A stretch of 32,000 nt of DNA from assembly GCF_023169545.1 (NCBI RefSeq), contig NZ_AP019769.1, positions 480,001 to 512,000 of the forward strand, in the 5' to 3' direction. Positions within the stretch are counted from its first letter, which is position 1. Every line of letters starts with the position of its first letter. The translations under genes were made by a program, and so were the position numbers. The DNA is from Nanobdella aerobiophila (lineage in GTDB: Archaea; Nanobdellota; Nanobdellia; Nanobdellales; Nanobdellaceae). Under the pieces are notes generated by a model, which was not told the origin of the DNA, made no database searches, and worked only from the letters and a program-made list of their open reading frames with translations. This document shows positions 3,638 to 24,173 of this stretch, piece by piece.

Positions 3638-4492
3638 TTATAAAGCATTCCAATACCTTAATATTTCTTTTTCTGATTTTTCTATCATACCTTCAATTTT
3701 CTTAAATTCTTCTTTAGAATATGATATCTGTTTTTTGAGGAAGAAATAATAATATTCTCCATTGTCAATTTTCAAGGTTTGATATCGAGAATTATTTGTA
3801 GGCGAATTTAAAATCTTCAAACCATTCTTATGATTTTTAATTATTTTATTAAGTACCAGTCCTAGTTGGTATTCAAATCTACTATATAAAGCTAAAACTA
3901 TATATCCATTAGTACATTCTTTCTCAATTATTTTATTATCCATCATTTTTTCGGCCAAGTATAGATATATTAATACTTGATTTGATGCACTTTCAATTAC
4001 TTCATTCAATTTTTCTATTATTGGTTTATCTTTATCTACATACAAGCTCTTTAACTCGTATAATTCAATACACTTATCAAAGGATATTATATCTGGTTTT
4101 CCTACTATTAGAGAGTATTTAACTGATCTAGCATCATAATAAGGTTTATAATATGCTAAATATATATTACCTACCCAATTTTTTAAATACCTAGCTTTAT
4201 AAGTATTAAGAAGATAGTCATGAAACGTCTTATTTGAATCTACTATAAATACAGGCTTTCCTTTTAATAGATAATTAACTGGTATTGAAATATAAACTTT
4301 TTTACCATTTAATAAAATACTAGGCGACTTTTCCTTATTTGATTTAATATAATTGATCATATGATGATTATATTCAACAAATATTTTTTCTAAGTTTTTA
4401 GAACCGTCTCCAGTGGATACATCAAGAGGTTGACTTCCTATTTTATCTAATATATCATCGATCGTCTTTATAGACCACTGGTAATTATGCAT
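3638..4492 (-). CDS. Hypothetical protein with PD-(D/E)xK-like motif
   Basis: Start re-set to the ATG at 4490-4492 (MHNYQWSIK...) because the tracked ORF 3638..4612 reads through the tRNA gene. Contains GKPDIISFDKCIELYELKS, a P-D ... E-L-K spacing typical of restriction-endonuclease-fold proteins. Assignment is motif-only. Confidence 0.45.
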   Translation of the reverse strand: MHNYQWSIKTIDDILDKIGSQPLDVSTGDGSKNLEKIFVEYNHHMINYIKSNKEKSPSILLNGKKVYISIPVNYLLKGKPVFIVDSNKTFHDYLLNTYKARYLKNWVGNIYLAYYKPYYDARSVKYSLIVGKPDIISFDKCIELYELKSLYVDKDKPIIEKLNEVIESASNQVLIYLYLAEKMMDNKIIEKECTNGYIVLALYSRFEYQLGLVLNKIIKNHKNGLKILNSPTNNSRYQTLKIDNGEYYYFFLKKQISYSKEEFKKIEGMIEKSEKEILRYWNAL

Positions 4493-4523
4493 TAATAGTA
4501 AATAGTAATAAAGGATATAAACC

Positions 4524-4607
4524 CGCCGTGGGTGGGATTTGAACCCACGTCCCCTTTCGGGGATATGGTCTCCAGCCATACCCCTTGGACCGCTCGGGCA
4601 CCACGGC
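4524..4607 (-). tRNA. tRNA-Ser (anticodon GGA), class II with long variable arm
   Basis: Reverse complement reads GCCGUGGUGCCCGAGCGGUCCAAGGGGUAUGGCUGGAGACCAUAUCCCCGAAAGGGGACGUGGGUUCAAAUCCCACCCACGGCG. It has a 7-bp acceptor stem, anticodon stem UAUGG/CCAUA with loop CUGGAGA (anticodon GGA), variable arm CCCCGAAAGGGG and T-arm GUGGG-UUCAAAU-CCCAC. It is a GC-rich island in AT-rich DNA. Confidence 0.9.
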
Positions 4608-4608
4608 A

Positions 4609-5052
4609 TCAATTATATTTTAATTCAATATCATATAATACATTAGAATATTTATATAAAAGTTGTATGAGATCATTGCTAGTTAAATTTACATTATTAG
4701 AATAGCATCTTGTACTTTGGTTAATATATAATATAGATTGATTACAAGATAGATTATATCTAACTCCAGATATATTCAATATAAATTGATTTGTGTATAT
4801 TTCTGGTAATTGTATATCATTTAAATACAAATATAATGTATTGTTTGAATAATTTACTGTATAGTTATATGGGTTTGTATAAAAATTAAAATTCATAGAA
4901 CCATATAATACCTTATGTAAATAATTATAATAATAATATAGTATTAATATAGTAGCTATTATGGCAAAAATTAGGATAATCCCATAGTATTTTTTCATAC
5001 CTTTTTTATATCTAAAATTCTTTTTAAATTTTTTATGATAAAATAAATTCAT
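4609..5052 (-). CDS. Hypothetical small membrane-anchored protein
   Basis: 147 aa. N-terminal helix YYGIILIFAIIATILILYYYY, then an N/Y-rich region with several N-x-S/T sequons. ATG at 5050-5052. Confidence 0.4.
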   Translation of the reverse strand: MNLFYHKKFKKNFRYKKGMKKYYGIILIFAIIATILILYYYYNYLHKVLYGSMNFNFYTNPYNYTVNYSNNTLYLYLNDIQLPEIYTNQFILNISGVRYNLSCNQSILYINQSTRCYSNNVNLTSNDLIQLLYKYSNVLYDIELKYN

Positions 5053-5257
5053 GAAAAAAATAAAGGTATTTATAGAAAAATATAATCTTGAAAAAGAGAT
5101 AGACTTTAATGGTAATAATATAAAAGAATTATTAAATATGCTAAATCTAGACCCATCAAGATTTTTAGTATTAAAAAATAATGAAATAGTAACTGAAGAG
5201 GATAATATAAATGAAGGAGATTATATAAAAATTCTAGATTCCGTATCGGGGGGATAA
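5051..5257 (+). CDS. ThiS/MoaD-family ubiquitin-like small protein (SAMP-like), C-terminal GG
   Basis: 68 aa ending ...ILDSVSGG. Size, beta-grasp-like pattern (VLKNNEIV...EGDYIKIL) and the terminal Gly-Gly fit ThiS/MoaD/SAMP. Confidence 0.7.
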   Translation: MKKIKVFIEKYNLEKEIDFNGNNIKELLNMLNLDPSRFLVLKNNEIVTEEDNINEGDYIKILDSVSGG

Positions 5258-5291: not shown

Positions 5292-6209
5292 ATGTATGAC
5301 CCTTATTATATAGATTATTATAATATTATAAAAAAATATGAAAATTTAGAAACAAAAGACTATAAAAAAATATTAATATCTGGAATGGGCGGTTCTGGAA
5401 TAAATGGCGATTATATTATACCAATATTAAATAATAGAGAAGTATATGTACTAAAAGATTATTTTTTACCAGAATTTGTAGATGATGAATGGTTAAATAT
5501 ATTTATTTCTTACTCCGGGGATACAGAAGAAACTATAAGTTCTATGAATGATTCAATAAATAATAAATTTAATACTATAGCAATTTCTGCTGGAGGGGAG
5601 ATGGAGAGGATAGCAAAAGAAAAAAATTTATATTATATCAAAATAGATAAAAATTTTCCAGCTACAAGATACACTTTTCCAATAATATTAGGAATTTTAT
5701 TGTCAATATTAGATAAAAACAAATATTATGAATTACTAGATATATTAAAGGATTATAAAGAAAAATTGAGGGACCTATCTTTATATGTAGATGATATAAA
5801 AAATCCTATAATGATATATACTGATAAAAAACATGAATCTTTAGCTTTAGGATTGAAAATGCATTTAAATGAGGAGGCAAAATGGTTTACTCAATATGGA
5901 ATCATATCTGAATATAATCATCATGATTTAGAAAGTATTAGTAAATTAAATATAGATTTTATATTATTAAAATTCAATTATTATCAGAGAATTGAATATA
6001 GAATAAATTATTTAAAAGATTTATTAGAACAATATGGAAATAATGTCTTATTATTTGATTTAAAATATAGAAATTTATTAGAAGAAATCGTATTAGGTAC
6101 ATTATCATTTAGAACATTTACATTAAAACTAGCAGAAAAATTAAATGTAGATCCATATCATAGTAAAAATATTGCTGGTTTAAAGGCATTTCTGAAAAAT
6201 ATTAAATAG
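5292..6209 (+). CDS. Bifunctional phosphoglucose/phosphomannose isomerase family protein (SIS domain)
   Basis: 305 aa. Motifs ILISGMGGSGINGD and ISYSGDTEET are typical of the archaeal PGI/PMI SIS family. Its last ~255 nt are partly duplicated at 13646-13775. Confidence 0.75.
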   Translation: MYDPYYIDYYNIIKKYENLETKDYKKILISGMGGSGINGDYIIPILNNREVYVLKDYFLPEFVDDEWLNIFISYSGDTEETISSMNDSINNKFNTIAISAGGEMERIAKEKNLYYIKIDKNFPATRYTFPIILGILLSILDKNKYYELLDILKDYKEKLRDLSLYVDDIKNPIMIYTDKKHESLALGLKMHLNEEAKWFTQYGIISEYNHHDLESISKLNIDFILLKFNYYQRIEYRINYLKDLLEQYGNNVLLFDLKYRNLLEEIVLGTLSFRTFTLKLAEKLNVDPYHSKNIAGLKAFLKNIK

Positions 6210-6240
6210 TTTTTATTTTATATTGGTTTTCATATCTAAA

Positions 6241-6296
6241 GAATTATTAAATAGATAATATTAAACTTATACCTTTATATAAGTAGTTAATTAAAT
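6241..6296 (+). pseudogene. Degenerate relic of the 3' end of the ATPase constant module (a lost 'copy 0')
   Basis: gaattattaaatagataatattaaacttatacctttatataagtagttaattaaat aligns, with internal deletions, to ...ccagaattattaata...aatagataatattaatattaaatttatacctttatataagtggttattaaat, which ends each of the five ATPase genes. Confidence 0.55.
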
Positions 6297-6583
6297 GTTG
6301 ATTAATTTTTTATCAAAAAATTTTTATTATTCTTTACTATCTCTTAATAATATGAAATTATTAAATACTCATAATAATCTATAAATCGCGTTTAATTGAA
6401 TATGAAATAAAAATACCTTTTATAAATTTTAGTAAATAGTTTTTATTAAACATAAAGTATAATTTATCTGCAAAAATATTATTGATACTTAATTTATTAT
6501 ATATATAATTTTTGTCTTTATATTAAAAATTTCCCTATAAGAAAGAAAATTTTTATAAAAAATTTCCTCATTGTAAATAAAAT

Positions 6584-7846
6584 ATGAATGCAAAAAATAT
6601 AATGGATTTCTTCGAAGAGTATAATAATTTTAATCCTGAAATTATTGAAAGAGAATTAAAAATTGAAATAAATAGCAACTTTATAACTACAATAATAGGT
6701 CCAAGAAGGTCTGGTAAAACATATTATTTATTATATTTAAGAAAATTATTAAGAGATCCTTTATATTTAAATTTTGAAGATTCTAGATTAATAGATATAG
6801 ATTATAAAGATTTAAGAAATGTAATAAGATTATTCAAAGAAAATTATTATGAACCGCATACATTGTTATTAGATGAAATACAGAATTTAAAAGGGTGGGA
6901 AATTATTATTAGAGAATTACATGATTTAAAAAAATATAATATTATTATTACAGGTTCTTCTTCTAAATTATTATCGAAAGAAGTTGCAACACAATTAAGA
7001 GGAAGAACTATAACTTATTTATTATTACCTTTTTCTTTTAGGGAATATATAAAGATAAAAAATATTGAAATAAATTTAAGGTCTTTAGAAAATATTTCTG
7101 ATATAAAAAAATTATTGAAAGAATATTTAGAATATGGTGGATTTCCTGATGTAACATTTTCGGATAATAAAACAAAAATATTGAAAGAATATTCAGATTT
7201 AATATTATTTAGAGATTTTATAGAAAGATATAAAATAAAAAATTTAGAATTAGCCCGATTTTTACATAACTTTTTATTATCAAATTTTTCTGAAGAAATT
7301 TCAATAAATTCTATATACAATAAAATAAAAAGCATGAATATAATGTTATCAAAAAATACAATATATAACTATATAACAAAAATGGAAGATACAATTTATT
7401 TTTTCTTATTAGATAAATATTCAAATAAAATACATATTAGAAAAACTTGGCCAAAGAAAATATATATTTGTGATACAGGTTTATCAAAAACAATTAGATT
7501 TTCTGAAGATATTGGTAAATTAATGGAAAATATTATTTATTTAGAATTATTAAGAAAAACAAATATTAATCCATTATTAGAAATATATTATTTTAAAGAT
7601 TATCAACAACATGAAATAGACTTTTTAGTTAAAGAAGGAAATAATATTAAACAATTAATACAAGTATCATATATTAATAATTATGATGAAATAGATAAAA
7701 GAGAAATAAGATCATTATTAAAAGGATATAATTTATTTAATAAACCAGAATTATTAATAATTACATGGGATTATGAGGATAATAAAATAATAGATAATAT
7801 TAATATTAAATTTATACCTTTATATAAGTGGTTATTAAATATATGA
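6584..7846 (+). CDS. AAA+ ATPase, COG1373-like (AAA_14 + DUF4143-like), paralog 1
   Basis: 420 aa. Walker A GPRRSGKTY, Walker B LLLDEIQ, ITGSSSKLLSKEVATQLRGR, GGFPD, RDFIERYKI, CDTGL, ENIIYLEL, then the constant tail EIDFLVKEGNNIKQLIQVSYINNYDEIDKREIRSLLKGYNLFNKPELLIITWDYEDNKIIDNINIKFIPLYKWLLNI. Confidence 0.8.
   Translation: MNAKNIMDFFEEYNNFNPEIIERELKIEINSNFITTIIGPRRSGKTYYLLYLRKLLRDPLYLNFEDSRLIDIDYKDLRNVIRLFKENYYEPHTLLLDEIQNLKGWEIIIRELHDLKKYNIIITGSSSKLLSKEVATQLRGRTITYLLLPFSFREYIKIKNIEINLRSLENISDIKKLLKEYLEYGGFPDVTFSDNKTKILKEYSDLILFRDFIERYKIKNLELARFLHNFLLSNFSEEISINSIYNKIKSMNIMLSKNTIYNYITKMEDTIYFFLLDKYSNKIHIRKTWPKKIYICDTGLSKTIRFSEDIGKLMENIIYLELLRKTNINPLLEIYYFKDYQQHEIDFLVKEGNNIKQLIQVSYINNYDEIDKREIRSLLKGYNLFNKPELLIITWDYEDNKIIDNINIKFIPLYKWLLNI
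7613..7846 (+). repeat. Constant 3' module, copy 1 (234 nt)
   Basis: From gaaatagactttttag... to the stop. Near-identical at nucleotide level to 8952-9185, 10293-10526, 11622-11864 and 13287-13526. Identity with copy 4 extends upstream to 7523. Confidence 0.9.
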
Positions 7847-7859
7847 TTTTTTATAAATG

Positions 7860-7900
7860 CTTACCCCTTTAGGGGTAAGGATTTAATAAAATTTTTACCC
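7860..7900 (+). promoter_or_regulatory. Inverted/triple TTACCC(C) half-sites around the paralog-2 TATA-like box
   Basis: cttacccc-ttta-ggggtaag is a perfect 8-bp hairpin/palindrome (7860-7879). A third half-site ttaccc lies at 7895-7900. The AT box atttaataaaattttt sits between them, about 25 nt upstream of the ATG at 7911. Confidence 0.5.
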
Positions 7901-7910
7901 ATATAGTATT

Positions 7911-9185
7911 ATGGATATTAAAGATTATTTTATAAATAAAAAGGAATATATAAAGAGATTAAAAATATATCCAAGAGAACTTAGTATAAATATAAATAAG
8001 GAATTTGTTTTTTCGATAATAGGTCCAAGAAGATCTGGTAAAACATATTTCCTATATGATTTGATATTAAATAAATTAAAATTAAGAGATGAAGATTACA
8101 TTTTTATAAATTTTGAAGAAGAGGGGTTAGATTTTGATAAGGATAGAATTTATAATATAATAAAAAGTCACATTGAAATATATGAAAAAGAACCAGAATA
8201 TTTATTTTTTGATGAAATACAAAATCTAAAAGATTGGGAAAAATTTATTTATACATTATATGAACAAAAGAAATATTATATATTTATTACAGGTTCTTCA
8301 TCAAAATTATTATCAAAGGAAATTGCAACGCAATTTAGAGGAAGGAGTATAAGTTATATTATATTACCATTTAATTTTAAAGAAATATTATATATAAAGG
8401 GATTTGAAATAAAAAAATATTATACAATTAGTGAAAAAGGAAAAATTTTAAATATATTAAATAAATATTTACAATCTGGTGGATATCCGCAATTAATTTT
8501 AACAGATATAGATGAACAGGAATTTTTTAAATCATTAATAGATTCTATATTTTATAGAGATATCATAGAAAGATACAAGATAAAACAACAATATTTATTA
8601 GAACTAATTATAAAAATACTATCTTCTTCATTTTCTTCTCAATATTCGATAAATAAAATATACAATAGTTTAAAGTCATCCGGATTAAAAGTATCTAAAA
8701 AAACAGTATATAACTATATAAGATATTTGGAAAATGTTTTTCTAATTTTTTCTTTGAGACATTTTGATTTTTCAATCAAGAAAATGGAATTAGCAAATAA
8801 AAAATTATATTTTATTGATAATGGGATAATAAATTATTTATTAAATAATAGAATACCAAATAATATAGGAAGACTAATGGAAAATACTGTTTTTATTGAA
8901 TTATATAAAAAATATAAAGAAAATGTTTATTATTTATATGGAAATAATTATGAAATAGACTTTTTAATTAAAGAAGGAAATAATATAAAACAATTAATAC
9001 AAGTATCATATATTAATAATTATGATGAAATAGATAAAAGAGAAATAAGATCATTATTAAAAGGATATAAATTATTTAATAAACCAGAATTATTAATAAT
9101 TACTTGGGATTATGAAGATACAAAAATTATAGACAATATTAATATTAAGTTTATACCTTTATATAAATGGTTATTAAATATATAA
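7911..9185 (+). CDS. AAA+ ATPase, COG1373-like, paralog 2
   Basis: 424 aa. GPRRSGKTY, LFFDEIQ, ITGSSSKLLSKEIATQFRGR, GGYPQ, RDIIERYKI, IDNGI, ENTVFIEL, and the constant tail from EIDFLIKEG to LLNI. Confidence 0.8.
   Translation: MDIKDYFINKKEYIKRLKIYPRELSININKEFVFSIIGPRRSGKTYFLYDLILNKLKLRDEDYIFINFEEEGLDFDKDRIYNIIKSHIEIYEKEPEYLFFDEIQNLKDWEKFIYTLYEQKKYYIFITGSSSKLLSKEIATQFRGRSISYIILPFNFKEILYIKGFEIKKYYTISEKGKILNILNKYLQSGGYPQLILTDIDEQEFFKSLIDSIFYRDIIERYKIKQQYLLELIIKILSSSFSSQYSINKIYNSLKSSGLKVSKKTVYNYIRYLENVFLIFSLRHFDFSIKKMELANKKLYFIDNGIINYLLNNRIPNNIGRLMENTVFIELYKKYKENVYYLYGNNYEIDFLIKEGNNIKQLIQVSYINNYDEIDKREIRSLLKGYKLFNKPELLIITWDYEDTKIIDNINIKFIPLYKWLLNI
8952..9185 (+). repeat. Constant 3' module, copy 2 (234 nt)
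   Basis: Same block. Identity with copy 5 extends upstream to about 8877 (atggaaaatactgtttttattgaattatataaaaaatataaagaaaat...). Confidence 0.9.
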
Positions 9186-9238
9186 TTTCTATTTGTTCAT
9201 AACATCCTTTTATTATATATTGTAATATTTTATTTATC

Positions 9239-9268
9239 AGTGCGAAAATTTAATAAAAAGTTCGCACT
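9239..9268 (+). promoter_or_regulatory. 8-bp inverted repeat bracketing the paralog-3 TATA-like box
   Basis: agtgcgaa (9239-9246) and ttcgcact (9261-9268) flank aatttaataaaaag. The box centre is about 26 nt upstream of the ATG at 9279. Confidence 0.5.
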
Positions 9269-9278
9269 AATAGATAAT

Positions 9279-10544
9279 ATGATTGCAGATATATTATTAA
9301 GTCAAAAATATTATATGGATAAAGTTATTAATAGTTCTAAATTCATCGAAAGAGAATTAAAATTAATAAATACAAAATTAGTAAAGGTAATAACTGGTAT
9401 TAGAAGATCTGGAAAATCTTTATTTATTTATAATTATTTAAAAGATAAAAAATTTGCATATGTAAATTTTGATGATGATAGAATATTAAAATATAGTGCA
9501 GAAGAAATATATAAAGGACTATTACAAGCATATAATTTATTTGATATAATTTTATTTGATGAAATACAAAATTTAGAAAATTGGGAAATATTTGTTAATA
9601 GATTATATAATCAAGATTATGATATCTATATTACAGGTTCAAATTCAAAATTATTATCAAAAGAATTATCTACACATTTAACTGGTAGGGCAATTTCTTT
9701 TACATTATTTCCTTTTTCTTTTAGAGAATTTCTTAAGGCAAAAGAATTTAAAATAAATACCTATGAAGATTATGAAAGAATAAAAGGATTATTAAGAGAA
9801 TATTTAGAATATGGAGGATTTCCAGAAATAGTTGTAAATAATGAAGATCCTCATATATATTTAAAGGAATTATATGATCGTATAATAAATGTTGACATAA
9901 TATATAGGTATAAAATAAAATATTCTAAGACATTTAAAGATATTTCATATTATCTATTATCAAATATTTCAAATAATATAACTTATAATTCAATAAAAAA
10001 GAATTTTAATTTAGGTAGTGATCATACTGCCTCAAAATATTTATATTATTTGGAAGAATCATTTTTATTCATATTTTTAAATAATTTTTCATTTAAATTA
10101 AAAGAAATAAATAAATCTCCTAAAAAAGTATATACAATTGATACAGGTTTTTATACATCATTAGGATATAAAGTATTACCAGATAATATTGGAAAACTAA
10201 TGGAGAATATTGTTGCAATTGAATTATTTAGAAGAAAAAGTTATTATAATAAAAATCTAGAAATATATTATTTTAAAGATTATCAACAACATGAAATAGA
10301 CTTTTTAATTAAAGAAGGAAATAATATAAAACAATTAATACAAGTATCATATATTAATAATTATGATGAAATAGATAAAAGAGAAATAAGATCATTATTA
10401 AAAGGATATAATTTATTTAATAAACCTGAATTATTAATAATTACTTGGGATTATGAAGATACAAAAATTATAGATAATATTAATATTAAATTTATACCTT
10501 TATATAAATGGTTATTAAATAATTCTTACATAAAAATTATATAA
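9279..10544 (+). CDS. AAA+ ATPase, COG1373-like, paralog 3
   Basis: The tracked ORF starts at GTG 9240, inside the inverted repeat. The ATG at 9279 (MIADILLSQ...) is preferred. GIRRSGKSL, ILFDEIQ, ITGSNSKLLSKELSTHLTGR, GGFPE, IDTGF, ENIVAIEL, constant tail. The C-terminus is extended (LLNNSYIKII) by a change at the usual stop. Confidence 0.75.
   Translation: MIADILLSQKYYMDKVINSSKFIERELKLINTKLVKVITGIRRSGKSLFIYNYLKDKKFAYVNFDDDRILKYSAEEIYKGLLQAYNLFDIILFDEIQNLENWEIFVNRLYNQDYDIYITGSNSKLLSKELSTHLTGRAISFTLFPFSFREFLKAKEFKINTYEDYERIKGLLREYLEYGGFPEIVVNNEDPHIYLKELYDRIINVDIIYRYKIKYSKTFKDISYYLLSNISNNITYNSIKKNFNLGSDHTASKYLYYLEESFLFIFLNNFSFKLKEINKSPKKVYTIDTGFYTSLGYKVLPDNIGKLMENIVAIELFRRKSYYNKNLEIYYFKDYQQHEIDFLIKEGNNIKQLIQVSYINNYDEIDKREIRSLLKGYNLFNKPELLIITWDYEDTKIIDNINIKFIPLYKWLLNNSYIKII
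10293..10526 (+). repeat. Constant 3' module, copy 3 (234 nt)
   Basis: Same block. Identity with copies 1 and 4 extends upstream to about 10258 (ctagaaatatattattttaaagattatcaacaacat). Confidence 0.9.
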
Positions 10545-10547
10545 TAC

Positions 10548-10579
10548 AATATACCAACTTTTATAAAAACTGGTATATT
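10548..10579 (+). promoter_or_regulatory. 9-bp inverted repeat bracketing the paralog-4 TATA-like box
   Basis: aatatacca (10548-10556) and tggtatatt (10571-10579) flank acttttataaaaac. The box centre is about 27 nt upstream of the ATG at 10590. Confidence 0.5.
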
Positions 10580-10589
10580 ATAATATACT

Positions 10590-11864
10590 ATGATTGATAA
10601 AGAGTTGGTGAAGAGATATATACTAGAATTCCAAAGTAAACCACCATCTAATATTAAAAAAAGAGAATTAAATATAACACCAATTAAAGGAAAAGCTATA
10701 AGTATAATAGGACCAAGAAGAGTTGGAAAAACATACTTCTTATTCTCATTAATTGATAATCCAGAAAGATATGTATATATAGATTTTGAAAATCCTATAT
10801 TTGCAAATTTCAAGCCTGAAGATATAATAAATATAGCTGATATCTTTAAAGAATTATATCCAGATAAAGAACCCATATTTCTTTTAGATGAAGTACAGGT
10901 AATAGAAGATTGGGAAAGAGTAGTTAGATATTTATTATCTAAGAATTATTATGTATATATTACAGGTTCTTCATCAAAATTATTATCAAAGGAAATTGCA
11001 ACACATTTAAGAGGTAGAACTATAACTTATAATATATTTAATTTAAGCTTTAGAGAATTCTTAAGATTTAAAGATATAAATTTTGAAGGTAAAGATTTTT
11101 ATCTAAATTATAATAAAATAAAATCTCTATTAAATGAATATATAAAATATGGAGGATATCCTGAAATAGTATTAAACGAAGATAAACTAAAACTATTACA
11201 AGATTATTTAACTACGGTAGTAAGTAGGGATATTATTGATAGATATATGATAAAAAATGAAAAAATTATAAATGAAATTTTATATTTTGCTATTAATAAT
11301 TATTCAAAATACATTTCATACAATTCTTTACACAAACTATTCAAACAATATGGCAAAAGTATTCATAAAATAACAATTATTAAATATTTATCATATTTCG
11401 AAGATTCTTTATTATTATTTTTACTAAAGAAATATTCTAAATCTATAAAAGAGATAATAGTATCACCTAAAAAAGTATATTTAATAGATACAGGATATGG
11501 AATATTTGGAAATAAAGATATCAGCAGGGATATGGAAAATATTATTTATTTAGAATTATTGAGAAAAACAAATATTAATCCATTATTAGAAATATATTAT
11601 TTCAAAGATTATCAACAACATGAAATAGACTTTTTAGTAAAAGAAGGAAATAATATAAAACAATTAATACAAGTATCATATATAAATAATTATGATGAAA
11701 TAGATAAAAGAGAAATAAGATCATTATTAAAAGGATATAATTTATTTAAAGAATATAATCCTGAATTATTAATAATTACTTGGGATTATGAAGATAATAA
11801 AATAATAGATAATATTAATATTAAGTTTATACCTTTATATAGGTGGTTATTAAATAATGATTAG
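10590..11864 (+). CDS. AAA+ ATPase, COG1373-like, paralog 4
   Basis: 424 aa. GPRRVGKTY, FLLDEVQ, ITGSSSKLLSKEIATHLRGR, GGYPE, RDIIDRYMI, IDTGY, ENIIYLEL, and the constant tail with the KEYNPELL variant. Confidence 0.8.
   Translation: MIDKELVKRYILEFQSKPPSNIKKRELNITPIKGKAISIIGPRRVGKTYFLFSLIDNPERYVYIDFENPIFANFKPEDIINIADIFKELYPDKEPIFLLDEVQVIEDWERVVRYLLSKNYYVYITGSSSKLLSKEIATHLRGRTITYNIFNLSFREFLRFKDINFEGKDFYLNYNKIKSLLNEYIKYGGYPEIVLNEDKLKLLQDYLTTVVSRDIIDRYMIKNEKIINEILYFAINNYSKYISYNSLHKLFKQYGKSIHKITIIKYLSYFEDSLLLFLLKKYSKSIKEIIVSPKKVYLIDTGYGIFGNKDISRDMENIIYLELLRKTNINPLLEIYYFKDYQQHEIDFLVKEGNNIKQLIQVSYINNYDEIDKREIRSLLKGYNLFKEYNPELLIITWDYEDNKIIDNINIKFIPLYRWLLNND
11622..11864 (+). repeat. Constant 3' module, copy 4 (243 nt)
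   Basis: Same block, with a 6-nt insertion (aaagaatataatcct versus aataaacca) shared with copy 5 and one extra codon before the stop. Confidence 0.9.
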
Positions 11865-12240
11865 TTTTTTAATAACTCTTATTTGTTATATTTTATAATA
11901 AAGATATTAAAAATTTTCTAAATCTATTATAATTGAGTATAAATGATTATTTTCCATTAAAAAATAAATTTTCTCCCGAGATCTCCATATTTTATGCTAT
12001 AAGTAAATGAATAGCATCTTCTAAATTTATTCTATGATATAAAAATCTATATTTTTATAGGCATTAATTAATAATACAGATATATTATAGAAATATAAAA
12101 TAAAAATGCTTAATATAAAAAATATTATAATATAAATAATTTAATATTTTATATTTAATAACTCTAAAGTTATTTAATTAAATTTTTATTGATTATATTT
12201 ATAATTATAATACTACTAAAAATATATATTATTATTGTAC

Positions 12241-12280
12241 AATATAGTGAACAAAATTTATATTTTTTGTACACTATAAT
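12241..12280 (+). promoter_or_regulatory. Imperfect 12-bp inverted repeat bracketing the paralog-5 TATA-like box
   Basis: aatatagtgaac (12241-12252) and gtacactataat (12269-12280) are complementary at 10 of 12 positions and flank aaaatttatatttttt. The box centre is about 27 nt upstream of the ATG at 12288. Confidence 0.45.
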
Positions 12281-12287
12281 ATATATA

Positions 12288-13526
12288 ATGAATATAAGTG
12301 AAGTATTGATAAGACAAAAGAATGAATTAAATTATATTTATTCACAAGAATTATTAGATAGAGAATATCATATTGATATAAATACAGATATTATAAAAGT
12401 AATAACTGGTATTAGAAGATCTGGTAAAAGTACTTTAGCATTATTATCATTAAAAGATAAAAATTTTGGATATGTAAATTTTGATGAAAGAGAATTAATT
12501 AATTTTAATTCAACAGATATAGAAAAAGGGATAAAAGAAATATATGGAGATACAAATATTTTATTTTTAGACGAGATACAAAATTATGATAAATGGGAAC
12601 TATGGGTAAATTCTTTATATAGAAGAGGATATAATATAACTATTACAGGATCTAATTCAAAATTATTATCAAAAGAATTATCTACACATTTAACTGGTAG
12701 ATATGTATCAATTGAGATTTTTCCATTTTCTTTTAAGGAAATATTAAATTATAAAAAAATTAATTTAAAAGATATAGAAATTGATAAAGAAAAAAAGGGA
12801 AAAATATTAAATATATTAAGAAATTATTTAGATACTGGAGGATTTCCTGAAGTAATTGTAAAAAATTTTGGAAAAGATTATATTAAAACATTATTTGATA
12901 GCATAATATATAAAGACGTTTTATATAGATATAAAATAAGAAATATTGAAAAATTACATGATTTAGCAAGATATTTAATATTTATATCATCTAATAGATT
13001 TACAATAAACAAATTATATAATATATTAAATTTTAATAGTAAAGTAACAGTAGAAAGATACATAGAATACTTAAAAGAAGCATACTTGATCTTTACACTA
13101 AGATATTTTTCATATAAAGAAAAAGAAAGAGTAAAATATCCTAAAAAAATATATATAATAGATAATGGATTTATAACAGCATTATCAGATAATTATTCAA
13201 TAAGTAGATTAATGGAAAATACTGTTTTTATTGAATTATATAAAAAATATAAAGAAAATTTTTATTATTTATATGGAAATAATTATGAAATAGACTTTTT
13301 AATTAAAGAAGGAAATAATATAAAACAATTAATACAAGTATCATATATTAATAATTATGATGAAATAGATAAAAGAGAAATAAGATCATTAATTAAAGGA
13401 TATAATTTATTTAAAGAATATAATCCTGAATTATTAATAATTACTTGGGATTATGAGGATACAAAAATTATAGATAATGTAAATATTAAATTTATACCTT
13501 TATATAAATGGTTATTAAATATATAA
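12288..13526 (+). CDS. AAA+ ATPase, COG1373-like, paralog 5
   Basis: The tracked ORF starts at TTG 12189 with a low-complexity I/L/Y leader. The ATG at 12288 (MNISEVLIRQ...) is preferred. GIRRSGKST, LFLDEIQ, ITGSNSKLLSKELSTHLTGR, GGFPE, IDNGF, ENTVFIEL, and the constant tail with the KEYNPELL variant. Confidence 0.75.
   Translation: MNISEVLIRQKNELNYIYSQELLDREYHIDINTDIIKVITGIRRSGKSTLALLSLKDKNFGYVNFDERELINFNSTDIEKGIKEIYGDTNILFLDEIQNYDKWELWVNSLYRRGYNITITGSNSKLLSKELSTHLTGRYVSIEIFPFSFKEILNYKKINLKDIEIDKEKKGKILNILRNYLDTGGFPEVIVKNFGKDYIKTLFDSIIYKDVLYRYKIRNIEKLHDLARYLIFISSNRFTINKLYNILNFNSKVTVERYIEYLKEAYLIFTLRYFSYKEKERVKYPKKIYIIDNGFITALSDNYSISRLMENTVFIELYKKYKENFYYLYGNNYEIDFLIKEGNNIKQLIQVSYINNYDEIDKREIRSLIKGYNLFKEYNPELLIITWDYEDTKIIDNVNIKFIPLYKWLLNI
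13287..13526 (+). repeat. Constant 3' module, copy 5 (240 nt)
   Basis: Same block, with the 6-nt insertion shared with copy 4. Confidence 0.9.
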
Positions 13527-13645
13527 AAATAATAAATTCCCAATAAATAAATTTTTTATTATTTTATATATAGAACAAATTACAATTGTTATTGTAAATG
13601 ATATCTATAATAGGACCTGAAAACATATTGTTTATATAAAAAACA

Positions 13646-13775
13646 AGATTTTATATTATTAAAATTCAATTATTATCAGAGAATTGAATATAGAATAAAT
13701 TATTTAAAAGATTTATTAGAACAATATGGAAATATATTTCTGTTTAAAGGCATTTTTGAAAAATATTAAATAGTT
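13646..13775 (+). pseudogene. Truncated duplicate of the 3' end of the PGI/PMI gene (direct repeat of 5954-6211)
   Basis: 13646-13734 is identical by eye to 5954-6042 (89 nt). 13735-13775 matches 6169-6211 with 2 substitutions and a 1-nt deletion, and about 126 nt in between are deleted. It ends with the same TAG+tt and directly abuts the stop codon of the convergent thioesterase gene. Confidence 0.85.
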
Positions 13776-14192
13776 CTAGAAAATCTTCCATATCCCATTC
13801 GCTTTTGCGAATATTTTTTCGCCATTATATAAATTCCCTTCCACAAATACAATTGAACTACCTTTTCTAATTATTCTTCCATTTATATAAAATTTATTGC
13901 CTTTTGCTTCTTCTAAAAAATCTATATTCAGATTTACTGTTACCTGATTAGCTTTATCATTAAATATTCTTACTAATAAACCAAGAAAAGCGTCGAATAA
14001 TAATTCTACAAAACCCCCAAACAAAAAGCCACCCTTCCTATAAAAATAATCTTTACCATCAAAAGATATTATTATTTCATTTTCTTTAAGTTCTTCTAAA
14101 TTAAATTCTAAACCTAATTTTTTTAATATTGGTATTTCTTCATATATTCTATTTATTTTAGTTCTAACTATACTAATATCCATATAATTCAT
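13776..14192 (-). CDS. PaaI-family hotdog-fold thioesterase
   Basis: 138 aa. The pattern GGFLFGGFVELLFDAFLG and the length are typical of the PaaI/YbgC-like 4HBT family. Confidence 0.65.
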   Translation of the reverse strand: MNYMDISIVRTKINRIYEEIPILKKLGLEFNLEELKENEIIISFDGKDYFYRKGGFLFGGFVELLFDAFLGLLVRIFNDKANQVTVNLNIDFLEEAKGNKFYINGRIIRKGSSIVFVEGNLYNGEKIFAKANGIWKIF

Positions 14193-15385: not shown

Positions 15386-16264
15386 ATGAGAATATTACTA
15401 AAATTTATATCATTACAAGATGCTAAATATGAAATAATTAATAATTATATTATTCAAGGTTTTATATATAATTTACTAAAAGATACTGAATTTGCATGGG
15501 TACATTCATATAAGGGATATAAATATTTTAATTTTTCAAATATATTTCCTGTAGAAGATCTAAAAATAGATAAAAAATATAATTTAATTATTTCTTCACC
15601 AAATAAAAAAATAATAAATGTAATGTATGAAAAATTAAAGGAAATAGATGAATTTAAACTAGGGATTTTAGATTTTAAAATAATTGAATTAAAAAAATTT
15701 GAATTAGAACTAAGATTTCCATGGGAAACTGCTACTCCAATTATATTAAAGAAAGGATATAATGGATATTTATCGGATGGTTTTAATTTATATAAAGTAT
15801 TCACAAAAGATAAAAATATATTTAAAGAATTCAAAAAAGAAAAAATAAGGATTAATAAAGATATTAAAGATATAAAAGTAAAAGATATAGATTATCTTGA
15901 TAAAAATAAATTTAGAATTATTAGAATAGATGATGTTTATTATAGCTTCGAAAAAGATTTAGATAATTTTTTTGATTGGTTAGAAGATTTAAAGAAAAAT
16001 TCTTTATTAAAATATAATTCTTATACAGGTTCTGAATTTACTTTTGATGAACCATTATTCGATGAATTTGAATATAGAAGAGAAATACCTGTAAAGGCAA
16101 GGGTAAAAAATAGAGGAGATGTTACATATATTGGAACTTTATGGAGAAAATTAAATGTTATAAGAAATTTAGATAGAGAAGAAAAAAGATTTTATAAATT
16201 TTTATTTGATACTGGTTTAGGATTACTTAATTCTATGGGATTTGGATTCATTAATTTGAAATAA
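15386..16264 (+). CDS. cas6: CRISPR-associated endoribonuclease Cas6
   Basis: 292 aa. The C-terminal glycine-rich loop GLGLLNSMGFGFINLK is typical of Cas6. It lies at the edge of the cas cluster. Confidence 0.75.
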   Translation: MRILLKFISLQDAKYEIINNYIIQGFIYNLLKDTEFAWVHSYKGYKYFNFSNIFPVEDLKIDKKYNLIISSPNKKIINVMYEKLKEIDEFKLGILDFKIIELKKFELELRFPWETATPIILKKGYNGYLSDGFNLYKVFTKDKNIFKEFKKEKIRINKDIKDIKVKDIDYLDKNKFRIIRIDDVYYSFEKDLDNFFDWLEDLKKNSLLKYNSYTGSEFTFDEPLFDEFEYRREIPVKARVKNRGDVTYIGTLWRKLNVIRNLDREEKRFYKFLFDTGLGLLNSMGFGFINLK

Positions 16265-16765
16265 TTATATTTCATCACTCCAGCATATCATTCTGTAGGA
16301 ACAATATTTACAATATTGTTTTTTTATTACTTTTGGTGGTTTATCGGATTTTAATATTTCTTTAATGTTCTTAACCATCTCTTCTATTTTCTTTTCATCT
16401 TCTTTAGATAATTCTATATATTCTTCTTTGCTTTCTTCAGGTATTATTAATTTTCCTTTTACATTCAAGCCCTTTCTATTTAAATAATATAAGTAATATT
16501 TTAATTGCCATAATGATGCTTCTTTAAATGAGGAAGACTTTTTAATTTCATAGATTAATACAAAATCTCTATATCTTTTCATAATATCTGGAGATATATC
16601 TTCAATTATTAATTTCTTTTGATATTTATATTTTTCTTTATAAAATAATTCTATATATTTTCCGATTAGCACCAGATCTGATTCATGTTCCATAGTTATT
16701 TTATGATGATAAAACCATAATTTCCTAGGACAAATAATAAAATAATAAATATAATTACCTTTCAT
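16265..16765 (-). CDS. cas4: CRISPR-associated exonuclease Cas4 (RecB-like, 4-Cys cluster)
   Basis: 166 aa. N-terminal Cys (ICPRKLWFYHH) plus C-terminal CKYCSYRMIC, and a central nuclease-like IYEIKKS. Its stop abuts the cas6 stop with zero spacer. Its ATG overlaps the upstream gene's stop by 1 nt (TAATG). Confidence 0.85.
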   Translation of the reverse strand: MKGNYIYYFIICPRKLWFYHHKITMEHESDLVLIGKYIELFYKEKYKYQKKLIIEDISPDIMKRYRDFVLIYEIKKSSSFKEASLWQLKYYLYYLNRKGLNVKGKLIIPEESKEEYIELSKEDEKKIEEMVKNIKEILKSDKPPKVIKKQYCKYCSYRMICWSDEI

Positions 16766-17385
16766 TAATACATTCTTAATAAATATCTTTCCAATTCTTC
16801 TGTACCAATTATAGACTTTTTTCCTAATATAACAGTTCTTTCTTCTAATTCTATTTCAATATTCTTAGTTTTAATAAAAGCTGTCAGATTTCTTTTGAAT
16901 ATTTCGGAATATTCTATGGGAACTCTAATTATAAAAGGATTCCTTCTTATTAATTCAGCATGAGTCTCTTCTAATAAACCTTTTTTATTTCTATCCTTTC
17001 TTCCATAAATAAAGAAATGAAAAGATACCTTCTTGCTATTTTTATTTTCCCCATAAATTATTTTTCTAAATATATATTCTTTAAATGATTTAAATGCCAA
17101 AATTTCTCTAATTGGTCTTTTATATTTTACAGACCAACCTTCTGATAATATTTCTATCAATAATGTTCCTAAAGAAAATAATTTATCAGATTCTATAATA
17201 TTTATATGATATATTTCTGGTAAATTTAGTTTTTTATATACATCATATGTGATTTTCTTGAATATAACTAATATATCAATATCTTTTGGATTTTCTTTTC
17301 CTCTAGTTATAGATCCGAATATTATAATATCTTCTATATTTTCATCTAATATTTTATGTAACTCTTCTATAATTTTATTTATCAT
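16765..17385 (-). CDS. Nucleotidyltransferase-domain protein (MNT-like) with ~100-aa C-terminal extension
   Basis: 206 aa. Minimal-NTase signature IIIFGSITRGKENPKDIDILVIF (G-S ... D-x-D). Overlaps the upstream HEPN-like ORF by 11 nt and cas4 by 1 nt. Confidence 0.7.
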   Translation of the reverse strand: MINKIIEELHKILDENIEDIIIFGSITRGKENPKDIDILVIFKKITYDVYKKLNLPEIYHINIIESDKLFSLGTLLIEILSEGWSVKYKRPIREILAFKSFKEYIFRKIIYGENKNSKKVSFHFFIYGRKDRNKKGLLEETHAELIRRNPFIIRVPIEYSEIFKRNLTAFIKTKNIEIELEERTVILGKKSIIGTEELERYLLRMY

Positions 17386-17713
17386 CTTTTATCATATCCT
17401 TTATTTTTGTAGCCCATTCTTTTAATGAACTTGCTTCTGAAGGTGTAATATTCCTATAATAAGCGCTAATGTATATTTCATATATACTTTGGTATATATC
17501 TGAAAGTTCTTTACAAACTTTGTCTATTATTTTTTTAGAATTTAAATATATTTTTCTTTCATCATGGTTTTTTACTGTTATATTATATTTTTTATATAAA
17601 TAATAATCTATCATTCTGAATATTGCTTTAGCATATAATACAGCAGATGCTGTATACCAACCTTTCTGATAATCGAACTCTGCAGGTTCTAATAATTCTT
17701 CCCATGGTTCCAT
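17375..17713 (-). CDS. Small helical HEPN-like protein (partner of the NTase)
   Basis: 112 aa. All-helical pattern with GWYTASAVLYAKAIFRMIDYYLYKK...KNHDER resembles COG2250-type HEPN proteins. A canonical R-x4-6-H motif is not evident (K-N-H instead). The call rests mainly on gene order with the NTase. Confidence 0.4.
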   Translation of the reverse strand: MEPWEELLEPAEFDYQKGWYTASAVLYAKAIFRMIDYYLYKKYNITVKNHDERKIYLNSKKIIDKVCKELSDIYQSIYEIYISAYYRNITPSEASSLKEWATKIKDMIKDDK

Positions 17714-17847
17714 GAATATATTATAAAATTTAAATTATATAAGAATATCCATGGTTACAATAGTTAACGAAATTATATATTTAATTTCAACATGGTTAAT
17801 TATTATACCAAAGAAACATTTATAATCTTTTAAATCTATAATATAAA

Positions 17848-19203
17848 ATGTCCATTTCTCAAAATATTGATTTAAGTAACTTAAACGATTCTTACTATTA
17901 TAGATTATTATATAATTTATTAGGCCATATGCTACAAAATAAAAAAATTAAAGATGTTGATAGATTATTAGAAATATTAAAAGATGAAATAGAGAAAACT
18001 ATTAAGGAAGATTTTAGAGCATCCATATTAGTTACTTCTGTTTCAAAAGAAGAAGGTAGAAATTTTTATTTACCAGGAGAATCATTGTTATCTGAGGATG
18101 AAGTAAAAGAAATAATAGATGATTTAGATGGAATTTATATATATAACAATAAAAGAATATTTTTATTCAAAATAAAAAATAGTAGAGTATTTGAAAATTA
18201 TAAAAAAGAAATTATAGCTACTATGAAAAAAATTTATAATGAAAAGAAAAATCAAATTGATGAAGGAATAGATTTTAAAAGATTATTGGAAAAAGTAAAT
18301 GCTCAAAAGATAAAAAAATTATATTTATCAAGTAGTGACCGTAATAATAAAAAAAGTAGTGGTAAGGCTTATTCAAATATAGCGCTCTTCTTAATATTAA
18401 ATGATTTTATCTTATATATTTTAAAATATATCAACAAATATTCTAATGTAAAAAGTGATGATGAATTATTAATTCAGCTATTAAATAGAGATGAAAATAT
18501 ATTATATGTACCAGCAGTTTTTACTGTTTTAGGAAGTGAAAAAAAGAGAAAATATTATATTAATAACTTAGTAGATTTTATTTTTAAATTCTATCCAGAA
18601 GAAAAAACAAAAGTAAGCGAATATTCAATTATCGGAAGTTTTTTATTTTCTTTTTATATAATAGATAAAGATTTTAGAGATAAAGTTCTAGGATTATTAG
18701 ATAAATTCTTATATTATTTAATTTTTAAAGAATATATAAATTGGGCTATTTTATCTCAAATGATCTCTATATTTTATGATTATAATTCTAAGAAATTTAT
18801 AAGAAATAATAAAAAACCTATCTCAATAAAGGGAATAAAGTTCTTCATCATGATGGATTTAAAAAAATATTTCCATTGGGCATATGAAACTGGAAAAACA
18901 ATAATAAAAGAAAGTCCTACAAACGGAAAAGATTATATAGAAGAAATAATAAAAAATATAAGAAAAGAAGAATTACCAGGTAGATTTAAAGATGAACTAT
19001 ATAATTCTTTATATAAAATAACTGAAAAAATAAAGAAAGAAAAAGGAAATCCTAACTTTAATTTAGAAATAGATAAAGATATAATTGAAAAAAATCATTA
19101 TGGAGACGAATTTTATAAATTGAAATCAGCTATTATGGCTGGATTTATTAATTCATTAAGTTATAAATCTGAAGAGGCCAATACAAATAATAATATATCA
19201 TGA
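17848..19203 (+). CDS. cas8b: Type I-B large subunit candidate (Cas8b-like)
   Basis: 451 aa, first gene of a cas8-cas7-cas5-cas3 operon with ATGA overlaps. No motif-level identification, so the call is positional. Confidence 0.6.
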   Translation: MSISQNIDLSNLNDSYYYRLLYNLLGHMLQNKKIKDVDRLLEILKDEIEKTIKEDFRASILVTSVSKEEGRNFYLPGESLLSEDEVKEIIDDLDGIYIYNNKRIFLFKIKNSRVFENYKKEIIATMKKIYNEKKNQIDEGIDFKRLLEKVNAQKIKKLYLSSSDRNNKKSSGKAYSNIALFLILNDFILYILKYINKYSNVKSDDELLIQLLNRDENILYVPAVFTVLGSEKKRKYYINNLVDFIFKFYPEEKTKVSEYSIIGSFLFSFYIIDKDFRDKVLGLLDKFLYYLIFKEYINWAILSQMISIFYDYNSKKFIRNNKKPISIKGIKFFIMMDLKKYFHWAYETGKTIIKESPTNGKDYIEEIIKNIRKEELPGRFKDELYNSLYKITEKIKKEKGNPNFNLEIDKDIIEKNHYGDEFYKLKSAIMAGFINSLSYKSEEANTNNNIS

Positions 19204-20111
19204 TGAAGACAGTACAAATATCTATATTGGCTAGAGTATACGGAAATGTAAATGCGGATGAGAATATAGGAAATAGAATAACATTAAAGAAATTTTATAG
19301 TTCAGAAGGAGAAGTATTGCCATTTGTTTCAGCTAGAGCGATAAAATATTCAATAAGAGAAGCATTAAAAAACTCTGAATTTAAGACAGATCCATTTGTA
19401 AATGAAAGAACAGTGCTTGCAGATTCTGGAGATCCTATAACTTATGTAGATAATGATTTGTTTGGATTTATGGTTCCAGTTAAGAGAGAAAAAAGTGGAA
19501 AGGGAGAATCTATTAAGAGACAAGCACCAGTAGCCATATCATATTTTAAAGCATTAAAAAATACACCTATTAGTACAGAATTTGGTGCTAAATTTCCTAA
19601 AGAGGGGGATTCGAATCCAACACCATTTGAAGTAGAAGTTTCTGACTTTATAGGAAAATTAAACGTGTTAATATATGATTATATTGGAAAATTTAAAGAA
19701 CAAGAATTAAAAAATGTAAAAAATAAAGAAAATTTAGAAAAAAATGGAGATTTTTATGTATTAAAAAAAGAGGAAAGAGAAAAAAGATTAGGAAAATTCT
19801 TAGAAATATTATTGACTCCCAAATATGTTTTACCAAGAAGGTCGAATTCATTAAATATACCAGAATATATAATAGCCATTATAGTATTAAATAAGAAAGG
19901 TGTATTACCCATATACCAGTATTTAGATTATGTTATTAAAGATGGTAAAATTGAGATAAATAAGGAAAAATTTGAAAAATTAGAGTCTCTATGTAAAAAT
20001 AGTGAAAGTGAATTATATATAATAGATTATGAAAACATATTAAATGAAAATATAGAGAATAAAATAGACGTAAATACTGTAATTCAAAAAATAAAAGAAC
20101 ATTTACTATGA
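19200..20111 (+). CDS. cas7: Cas7 (type I-B backbone subunit, Csh2/DevR-like)
   Basis: 303 aa. N-terminal ISILARVYGNVNADENIGN and LPFVSARAIKYSIREAL are typical of the Cas7 family. Confidence 0.8.
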   Translation: MMKTVQISILARVYGNVNADENIGNRITLKKFYSSEGEVLPFVSARAIKYSIREALKNSEFKTDPFVNERTVLADSGDPITYVDNDLFGFMVPVKREKSGKGESIKRQAPVAISYFKALKNTPISTEFGAKFPKEGDSNPTPFEVEVSDFIGKLNVLIYDYIGKFKEQELKNVKNKENLEKNGDFYVLKKEEREKRLGKFLEILLTPKYVLPRRSNSLNIPEYIIAIIVLNKKGVLPIYQYLDYVIKDGKIEINKEKFEKLESLCKNSESELYIIDYENILNENIENKIDVNTVIQKIKEHLL

Positions 20112-20836
20112 AAGCTCTTGCTTTTAGGATTTCTTTTTTTGAATCTTTATTTACAGTTCATTATACTAAAGCATTTAAATTATCTTATCCAACACTTTTA
20201 CCCATTACTGTTTTTGGTCTTTTAGGAAATATATGTGGATATGATAGGGGAGAAATAGTTGAAAAACTTGGAAATTTTTATTTTGGATCTACATTTATAA
20301 AAGGAGATCCTACAGAAGAAAATATAACTTTTATACAATTTAAGAATGAAGGAAAAGGTAAATATAGAAGTGGAGTTGTAAAAACTCAAGTATACAGTAA
20401 TTCTGAACATATAATCGTAGTAGCTGGGGAAGAAAATGAACTAAGAAGGAAGATAATAGATAAAATAAGAAAAATAGATTTAGATACTATAAAAGATGAA
20501 TATGGAGAATGGAAGATAATAAGAACTATTAGATATCCATACGGTGGACAAAATGATTTTTTTGCAAAAGATATACGAATTTTAGATAAACTTTTAGAAG
20601 TAGAAAAAGATAATATAGTCAGAGGTTACGTCGTTTCTTCATTAATCAAATCGATAAATAAAGATACAAATATAGAAATATTACCTGCAAGATACAAAAA
20701 TAGGTTAGAATATTTTATATTTGTTAAAAAGGGATATGTAGAATTGAAAGAACCTATAGATTCTGTATTAAAGATTCCTTTATATAAAATAAAAGACTTT
20801 GCCATATACAAGAATGTGCAAATCCCATCCTTATAA
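20108..20836 (+). CDS. cas5: Cas5 (type I-B)
   Basis: 242 aa. N-terminus KALAFRISFFESLFTVHYTKAFKLSYPTLLPITVFGLLGNICG matches the Cas5 N-terminal pattern (xYP-xPxxSxxxGLLGxIxG). Confidence 0.8.
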   Translation: MKALAFRISFFESLFTVHYTKAFKLSYPTLLPITVFGLLGNICGYDRGEIVEKLGNFYFGSTFIKGDPTEENITFIQFKNEGKGKYRSGVVKTQVYSNSEHIIVVAGEENELRRKIIDKIRKIDLDTIKDEYGEWKIIRTIRYPYGGQNDFFAKDIRILDKLLEVEKDNIVRGYVVSSLIKSINKDTNIEILPARYKNRLEYFIFVKKGYVELKEPIDSVLKIPLYKIKDFAIYKNVQIPSL

Positions 20837-23129: not shown

Positions 23130-23149
23130 ATCGATAAAGATAATAATAT

Positions 23150-24160: not shown

Positions 24161-24173
24161 ATATTAATATATT

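Follow-up and report, generated by a model that had tools for sequence, protein, structure and literature searches.

A 7.4-kb block of candidate defence ATPase genes lies between an intact PGI/PMI gene and a decayed copy of its 3' tail in Nanobdella aerobiophila

Several described systems leave an inserted DNA segment flanked by copies of a host gene's end. In Escherichia coli K-12, the element e14 lies in icd (1195123-1196373): it starts at 1196209, 165 nt before the end of the gene, and the displaced 165-nt icd tail persists on its far side as icdC (1211413-1211577), the two tails being identical at 153 of 165 positions, with 12 scattered differences. Archaeal elements of the SSV and pNOB8 types almost always target tRNA genes, with cores of about 40-100 nt and an integrase gene that is either carried or split. 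Campbell-type single crossovers, as in pop-in constructs and in Hfr or F' formation, need no element-encoded enzyme; they leave a direct duplication, hundreds of nucleotides long, of the shared segment on both sides of the insert, and the duplicates are identical when formed and normally unstable unless one copy decays. Here, we analyse a 32,000-nt stretch of the genome of Nanobdella aerobiophila (NZ_AP019769.1, 480,001-512,000; hereafter the window, whose positions are used as coordinates), in which about 7.4 kb of DNA with five ATPase genes separates an intact bifunctional PGI/PMI gene (hereafter PGI) from a decayed copy of its own 3' tail.

The PGI gene (5292-6209, forward strand) encodes 305 amino acids and matches Pfam bact-PGI_C, with NCBIfam TIGR02128/NF006423 matching below cutoff. 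Its functional tail, the left copy, comprises 258 nt from codon 222 to the TAG stop, plus TT (5954-6211), and recurs on the same strand as a 130-nt fragment, the right copy, at 13646-13775, as the original prediction had proposed. Alignment of both segments bears this out. Positions 5954-6042 and 13646-13734 are 100% identical over 88-89 nt (blastn E = 1.6e-41); in a global alignment the right copy then lacks 127 nt, corresponding to 6042-6168 of the left copy, and its end (13734-13775) aligns with the remaining 43 nt (6169-6211) with three differences, namely G6174T, the loss of one G at 6177 and C6192T. The figures first put forward (89 identical nt, a deletion of about 126 nt and a final stretch of about 41 nt with three differences) were essentially right. 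Microhomology at the deletion joint amounts to at most 1 nt; a 5-nt AAATA microhomology considered at this deletion was dropped, the 127-nt gap of the global alignment being more parsimonious. PGI residues 222-250 are preserved at 100% in the right copy and residues 296-305 in another reading frame, and this copy is a frameshifted pseudogene fragment.

The duplication is sharply bounded. On the left, positions 5953 and 13645 already differ. Past 6211, the left copy gives way to a linker of about 20-27 nt (6212-6231, novel joint J1), without homology to PGI, to the ATPase genes or to the post-PGI sequence of relatives, and then to a remnant of an ATPase tail. Past 13775, the right copy abuts CTA, the reverse complement of the TAG stop of the neighbouring thioesterase gene (13776-13778), and the distance of 0 nt between them claimed earlier is correct. 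The 119-nt spacer between the last ATPase stop and the right copy (13527-13645) has no PGI homology, and its right end, at 13645/13646, is a second sharp novel joint (J2). Alignments detected no similarity past 5953/5954 or 6211/6212. Because identity stops abruptly at both ends, a longer segmental or tandem duplication, which had been considered as an alternative origin, does not account for the repeat, which is confined to the PGI tail.

We regard the PGI-tail duplication as confirmed and far beyond chance. An independent Logan short-read assembly (run DRR287719, contig L001) reproduces the succession of thioesterase gene, right PGI fragment and deletion joint, and stops exactly 30 nt into the 89-nt repeat. 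We take this end to be the point where a genuine repeat stopped a de Bruijn assembler, on the assumption that k = 31, which is not a reported parameter. No independent Logan support was obtained for the left joint: exact-protein look-ups of PGI and of the upstream gene g4609 were empty, and the contig with the upstream methyltransferase gene stops before PGI.

Comparison with relatives indicates what the block interrupted. PGI is colinear over its full length with orthologues of 77-81% identity in 54 nanoarchaeal loci (13 GTDB genome loci and 41 metagenome loci). In GTDB and JGI metagenome scans, full-length orthologues (70-81% identical) came only from Nanopusillus, Nanobsidianus, other Nanopusillaceae and Nanobdellota archaeon YN1. 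None of the 54 loci has ATPase genes after PGI, and a second PGI tail is absent from all 50 loci that contain the PGI end (flanks of up to 10 kb); a 33-nt match to the tail in locus L003 was rejected, as it did not rise above shuffles tested against 10 kb. In the window, the 4HBT/PaaI-type thioesterase gene (13776-14192, reverse strand; Pfam 4HBT) is convergent with PGI, its stop abutting the right PGI fragment. In Nanopusillaceae KM4331-08 (L011), the only relative with a thioesterase gene at this place, PGI is directly convergent with it and the stop codons overlap. Only three thioesterase homologues were found in a collection of 5.8 billion proteins, one of them beside PGI and the others, in YN1 and in one ENA contig, elsewhere. 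An ancestral order with PGI tail-to-tail with the thioesterase gene, and the block inserted between them, is well supported. It had been proposed together with an empty site in relatives, and KM4331-08 provides both; the status of the block as a newcomer is supported by its absence after PGI in 54/54 related loci, and no relative carries the array at this position, with or without the duplication.

Gene order breaks after PGI in Nanopusillaceae (L002-L054), with at least six different next genes and a TnpB/IS605-like gene directly after PGI in L020 and L026. Overall, the behaviour of the locus is that of a variable defence hotspot beside a conserved core gene. An explicit insertion footprint, the gene-tail duplication, survives here and is usually absent from such hotspots. 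The likeness to defence islands lies in the position of the block within a run of defence-type genes and in a post-PGI junction whose cargo differs from relative to relative (cf. PMC12988326). We also observed that metagenome contigs L048-L051 begin inside the PGI tail (residues 201-215), near codon 222 where the window duplication starts; this could reflect strain-level branching of assemblies at a conserved PGI tail.

The block itself consists of five co-oriented genes of 420-434 codons on the forward strand, in which AAA_14 and DUF4143 exceed the Pfam gathering cutoff: A1 (6584-7846), A2 (7911-9185), A3 (9279-10544), A4 (10590-11864) and A5 (12288-13526). The open reading frame (ORF) of A3 opens with GTG at 9240 and homology to the paralogues begins at about ATG 9279, whereas that of A5 opens with TTG at 12189, the probable start codon being ATG 12288. 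All five match the PADLOC profile of PDC-S01 (PDLC04787) over about 400 of 412 positions, with E values of about 1e-94 to 1e-101 (6e-95 for A1), and by sequence they belong to PDC-S01, which makes them candidate defence genes. PDC-S01 joins an ATPase to a PD-(D/E)xK domain and is a single-gene candidate whose validation is pending; it is the fourth commonest prokaryotic defence candidate and is enriched in Archaea and DPANN (PMC12988326). DUF4143 is indeed listed as PD-(D/E)xK (PMC3424549). The window genes resemble the described system in their full-length PDLC04787 match and in carrying AAA_14 and DUF4143 in all five cases, but differ from the single-gene description (PMC12988326) in forming five divergent tandem paralogues with homogenized 3' ends. 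A sequence search for a solved structure of these ATPases found none. The nearest foreign homologues are single genes amid toxin-antitoxin and CRISPR genes, and are uninformative on mechanism.

Little of the block is not ATPase DNA: there are stretches of about 372 nt ahead of A1, about 423 nt ahead of A5 and 119 nt following A5, with gaps of 45-93 nt between A1 and A2, A2 and A3, and A3 and A4. The stretch before A1 includes an orphan ATPase 3' tail (about 6232-6300, forward strand), that is, the last ~65 nt of an ATPase gene, ending in a sequence like NIKLIPLYK and lacking any gene body, followed by an AT-rich spacer without ORFs above 47 codons (6301-6583). The orphan tail is 84-90% identical to the tails of A1-A5, and its alignment score of 68 compares with a shuffle maximum of 51. 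It begins about 20-27 nt past the PGI stop, so that the five genes are accompanied by six tails in all. A truncated gene consequently forms the left boundary of the block, which is either an illegitimate joint or the product of a later deletion between PGI and the orphan tail. A G+C-rich hairpin (CTTACCCCTTTAGGGGTAAG), possibly a terminator or some other structured element, lies at 7846-7905, right behind the A1 stop, where the DNA is otherwise ~18% G+C.

The five ATPase genes combine old bodies with homogenized tails. The bodies are 40-49% identical to each other at the amino acid level, as against 80-97% for the last 95 residues, and the A1 body resembles homologues from other metagenome sources (59-70% identity) more than it does its own neighbours. 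In a sliding window along the alignment of the five genes, nucleotide identity is mostly 40-70% before column ~950 (up to 79% around columns 300-450), then 86-100%, with a peak of 95-100% around columns 1100-1200. The shared 3' blocks of about 290 nt (repeat family D1) occupy 7552-7841, 8891-9180, 10232-10521, 11561-11850 and 13226-13515, all on the forward strand. Their breakpoints are mosaic: A1 equals A4, and A2 equals A5, from about column 960, and A4 and A5 have a common 6-nt insertion. Judging from these alignments, the five ATPases are not recent duplicates, and their tails are under concerted evolution by repeated gene conversion. Because divergent bodies share near-identical tails with mosaic breakpoints, homologous recombination is evidently active in the ATPase region.

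Parts of this family are found elsewhere too. Yellowstone-type Nanopusillus contigs L063-L066 (L063:10001-10300) carry 99-codon ORFs that correspond to the C-terminal part of the ATPase only and are 75% identical to the shared tail; they adjoin a MazE/PIN pair, at a different locus. The ATPase family appears to have been repeatedly gained and degraded in Nanopusillus-type genomes.

The block shows no sign of an active mobile element. The original prediction had noted that no integrase, transposase or terminal inverted repeat is visible within it, and our ORF, Pfam and repeat searches agree: the block encodes no integrase, transposase or excisionase, its three long spacers hold only AT-rich ORFs of at most 47 codons, and there are no terminal inverted repeats at 6212 or 13645. 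The ORF listing of the three spacers returned only those AT-rich peptides, and integrase remnants were set aside on that basis, without further scan. The block has no room for an integrase gene, because the spacers measure only ~372, 423 and 119 nt. A Pfam scan of 20 ORFs covering 543-20836 gave no recombinase match (0/20); ORFs beyond this range were named by other means or by homology. No tRNA gene or other Rfam family lies at the block boundaries. IMG/VR viral contigs contain no relative of A1 and no match to a 40-nt piece of the repeat, and the spacers of the adjacent 26-repeat CRISPR array have only chance matches to the window (18 nt at most). Repeated use of the PGI-tail site was found neither in the 50 related loci nor in IMG/VR.

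These results distinguish the locus from several known types of insertion. Like SSV-type and pNOB8-type elements, the insert is flanked by direct repeats derived from the 3' part of a host gene, but it has no tRNA target, no short core and no integrase, and the tRNA-Ser gene of the window is uninvolved. A transposon or insertion sequence is contradicted by the lack of a transposase and of terminal inverted repeats and by a duplication as long as 258 nt. Among the features of attL/attR integration, flanking host-gene repeats and an empty site are present, but an integrase in or beside the block and site reuse in relatives are not. The Campbell type fits in its direct duplication of hundreds of nucleotides (258), of which 88-89 are still identical; the copies were probably identical when formed, and no element-encoded enzyme is needed. 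The differences are that a natural circular donor with a PGI tail and the array is hypothetical here, and that such a duplication is normally unstable, whereas in the window one copy has decayed.

We tentatively favour a one-off recombination of DNA carrying its own PGI tail, either Campbell-type host homologous recombination, the likeliest form, or a one-ended event, followed by decay of the right copy, a reading to which we give slightly less than an even chance. It is favoured because searches turned up no recombinase, relatives show no reuse of the site and the cargo is not virus-like. The homologous recombination seen among the ATPase tails, and a junction after PGI that is prone to rearrangement in the family, also speak for it. 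The ~7.4-kb block, made up of the orphan tail, the five PDC-S01-type ATPase genes and the spacers, would have been inserted once between the convergent PGI and thioesterase genes. The incoming DNA would have brought along a PGI tail of its own (the last ~258 nt), and a crossover within the tail would have placed an intact PGI to the left of the block, with the original tail, now redundant, to its right, beside the thioesterase gene. The route may have been a Campbell-type single crossover of circular DNA, or an equivalent ends-in event, performed by host homologous recombination, and the donor a same or very closely related strain with the array already behind PGI. The right copy would then have decayed through the 127-nt deletion, a 1-nt frameshift and two substitutions, with its first 88-89 nt either staying identical to the live gene or being re-converted to it; the ATPase 3' ends of the same region are being homogenized by gene conversion. 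What we infer is a circular or homologous route, together with the donor and the date.

The direction of change between the copies is consistent with this order of events. At each of the three sites of difference, the outgroup L011 agrees with the left copy (G at 6174, GG at 6177-6178, C at 6192), and the right copy is derived. Because all three differences are derived in the right copy, one of them a frameshift, the copies were probably identical at origin and the right one subsequently underwent pseudogene decay. The same decay would stabilize the insertion. A crossover within the 89-nt repeat would fuse PGI to a deleted, frameshifted tail, with loss of the block and inactivation of PGI; an intact PGI would be regained only if the crossover fell in the last ~34 nt. 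The block can thus be considered effectively fixed, since the right tail has a 127-nt deletion and a frameshift and excision via the 89-nt repeat would truncate PGI.

Several points weigh against a Campbell-type origin. The differences between the copies are unevenly distributed along them (0/88 vs 3/43, p about 0.03), which needs an extra assumption. Either gene conversion by the live gene may continue in the 89-nt block, the 43-nt block being too short for it, or the changes in the right copy may have arisen together with the nearby deletion. Because either process would explain the uneven differences, the identity of the repeat cannot be used to call the event recent. A donor-like arrangement, with PGI followed by the ATPase genes, was found in no genome, metagenome or viral collection searched. 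The closest PGI orthologues are only ~77-81% identical, so that the event is poorly dated and polarized, and the circular intermediate is one that we infer purely. The search of this genome for integrases and further tail copies covered the window, 32 kb of ~669 kb, and the orphan ATPase tail could mark the deletion of an integrase gene, which would rescue an attL/attR reading.

Such site-specific integration, the route suggested by the original prediction, is the first alternative to consider. An island with a replacement PGI tail would have entered the 3' end of PGI via a tyrosine or SSV-type integrase that was later deleted or acted in trans. The geometry is that of e14 (and phage 21) in icd, with an intact gene whose end belongs to the insert and a non-functional tail in direct orientation, like icdC, at the far end; the empty site exists in L011, and the orphan tail fits a deletion that removed an integrase gene together with the 5' part of a sixth ATPase gene. 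The cargo, moreover, belongs to a defence-type family widely transferred between lineages (PMC12988326). Yet e14 encodes intE/xisE and phage genes, whereas the window block has ATPase genes only, with no integrase, excisionase or remnant of either. The e14 tails have diverged at scattered sites, whereas the window copies are identical over 88-89 nt and differ only through derived decay of the right one; an element-borne tail would be expected to show scattered synonymous divergence instead. A 258-nt region of identity is also long for an att core, the site was not reused in the 50 relatives, and no viral or proviral relative was found in IMG/VR. What stands of this part of the original proposal is its geometry; the integrase, inverted repeats, site reuse, viral relatives and spacer match that could have accompanied it were not found. 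A self-encoded site-specific integrase is therefore the less likely route, and we consider this explanation rather unlikely overall.

The direction of the event could also be reversed, with the order of PGI and array being the older one. DNA from a strain with PGI convergent on the thioesterase gene, together with the CRISPR-Cas island, would then have been attached to the right side of the array by one-ended homologous plus illegitimate recombination. The left end of this DNA would have fallen at PGI codon 222, and the PGI fragment would be a passenger on the incoming right flank. The joints at ~6212-6231 and 13645/13646 show no sign of which side moved, the right flank is of a mobile type, with a type I CRISPR-Cas system, a HEPN/nucleotidyltransferase (NTase) pair and an HsdR fragment, and the thioesterase gene stands beside PGI in only one of the three relatives that possess it. 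On the other hand, this requires two strains with near-identical PGI (88-89/89 nt) but different arrangements, PGI is followed by the array in no relative, and the illegitimate joint must have fallen inside the PGI copy by chance. We consider this mirror-image course of events improbable.

Template switching of the kind described as fork stalling and template switching or microhomology-mediated break-induced replication (FoSTeS/MMBIR-like) is a third alternative. Synthesis running past the PGI stop would have switched into an ATPase tail elsewhere, copied ~7.4 kb and returned at PGI codon 222, so that one event would account for the duplication, for the truncated ATPase tail at the left joint and for two sharp novel joints. 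However, the joints show no clear microhomology, and the collection of 5.8 billion proteins, which includes this genome, holds no second A1 (it forms a cluster of one, the next match being 67%), so that the source would have to be lost or foreign. This makes the explanation very doubtful.

A more speculative possibility, which we hold to be more doubtful still, is that the array is an integrase-free cassette system, in which the ~290-nt ATPase tail would dock divergent PDC-S01 bodies for capture, exchange or loop-out via host homologous recombination, the PGI-tail duplication being the footprint left when such a circle was captured for the first time. Docking at the tail would account for the sixth tail, in excess of the five genes, and for the one tail common to bodies as distant as inter-phylum homologues. 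Finally, although repeats are typical sites of mis-assembly and the array has five near-identical 290-nt blocks, the idea that the duplicated tail is a mis-join deserves almost no credence, given that the right copy has a unique deletion joint and substitutions and recurs in the independent short-read assembly up to its end 30 nt into the repeat, and that the left copy belongs to an intact gene whose colinearity extends to all orthologues.

Very small host-dependent genomes are usually discussed in terms of gene loss. The locus described here offers a clean footprint, datable in principle, of such an archaeal genome (~669 kb) gaining 7.4 kb of candidate defence genes. If host recombination, not an integrase, made the insertion, nanoarchaeal chromosomes can take up defence cargo with no need of dedicated mobile-element machinery, and the decay of a redundant gene tail can lock that cargo in, since a crossover between the repeats breaks PGI. 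The tandem PDC-S01 paralogues, with their divergent bodies and homogenized nuclease-side tails, also provide a natural case for asking which part carries specificity. The locus is a well-preserved example of an ordinary kind of rearrangement; it calls for no new principle, and current views stand.

Upstream of PGI, gene order is stable. It reads S3Ae, methyltransferase, two unknown genes, g4609, a small ThiS-like ORF and PGI, and is the same in all GTDB loci reaching that far; the adjacency of the ThiS-like ORF and PGI is also kept in those metagenome loci where the PGI 5' end is present. This ThiS/MoaD-like ORF (5051-5251, forward strand) has 67 codons, below the ORF cut-off of 80, ends in Gly-Gly, has a weak NCBIfam ThiS match and is kept in all relatives at 68-84% identity. 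Five weak tblastn matches (repeat family D11) had raised the possibility of an ATPase remnant ahead of PGI at 5090-5140; it was rejected, the score of 35 comparing with a shuffle mean of 33 and maximum of 57, and the stretch is part of the conserved ThiS/SAMP-like ORF. The only RNA gene found in the scan is tRNA-Ser(GGA) (4523-4608, reverse strand), which is not involved in the insertion. A listed ORF at 3638-4612 overlaps this tRNA gene, and its true start must lie further downstream. The G+C content of the window is 16-28%, and its genes are archaeal, as exemplified by ribosomal protein S3Ae.

To the right of the thioesterase gene, the neighbourhood comprises cas6, cas4, the HEPN/NTase genes, cas8-7-5-3, cas1-cas2, a CRISPR array and the HsdR fragment. 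The type I cas locus spans 15386-24437 and is adjoined by the CRISPR array (24726-26525), with 26 repeats (GTTTAAATTAAATTAGAAATATTGAAAG). The names cas8, cas5, cas3, cas1 and cas2 were assigned from gene order and from precomputed Pfam labels of the identical genes of contig L001, cas8 and cas5 being without a family match. CRISPR-Cas systems are reported to be under-represented in DPANN (PMC12988326). The HEPN/nucleotidyltransferase pair (16765-17713, reverse strand) lies inside the cas locus, between cas4 and cas8. In YN1, which is without CRISPR-Cas, a pair 47-54% identical to it is found at L056:18533-19439, 8 kb from the thioesterase homologue.

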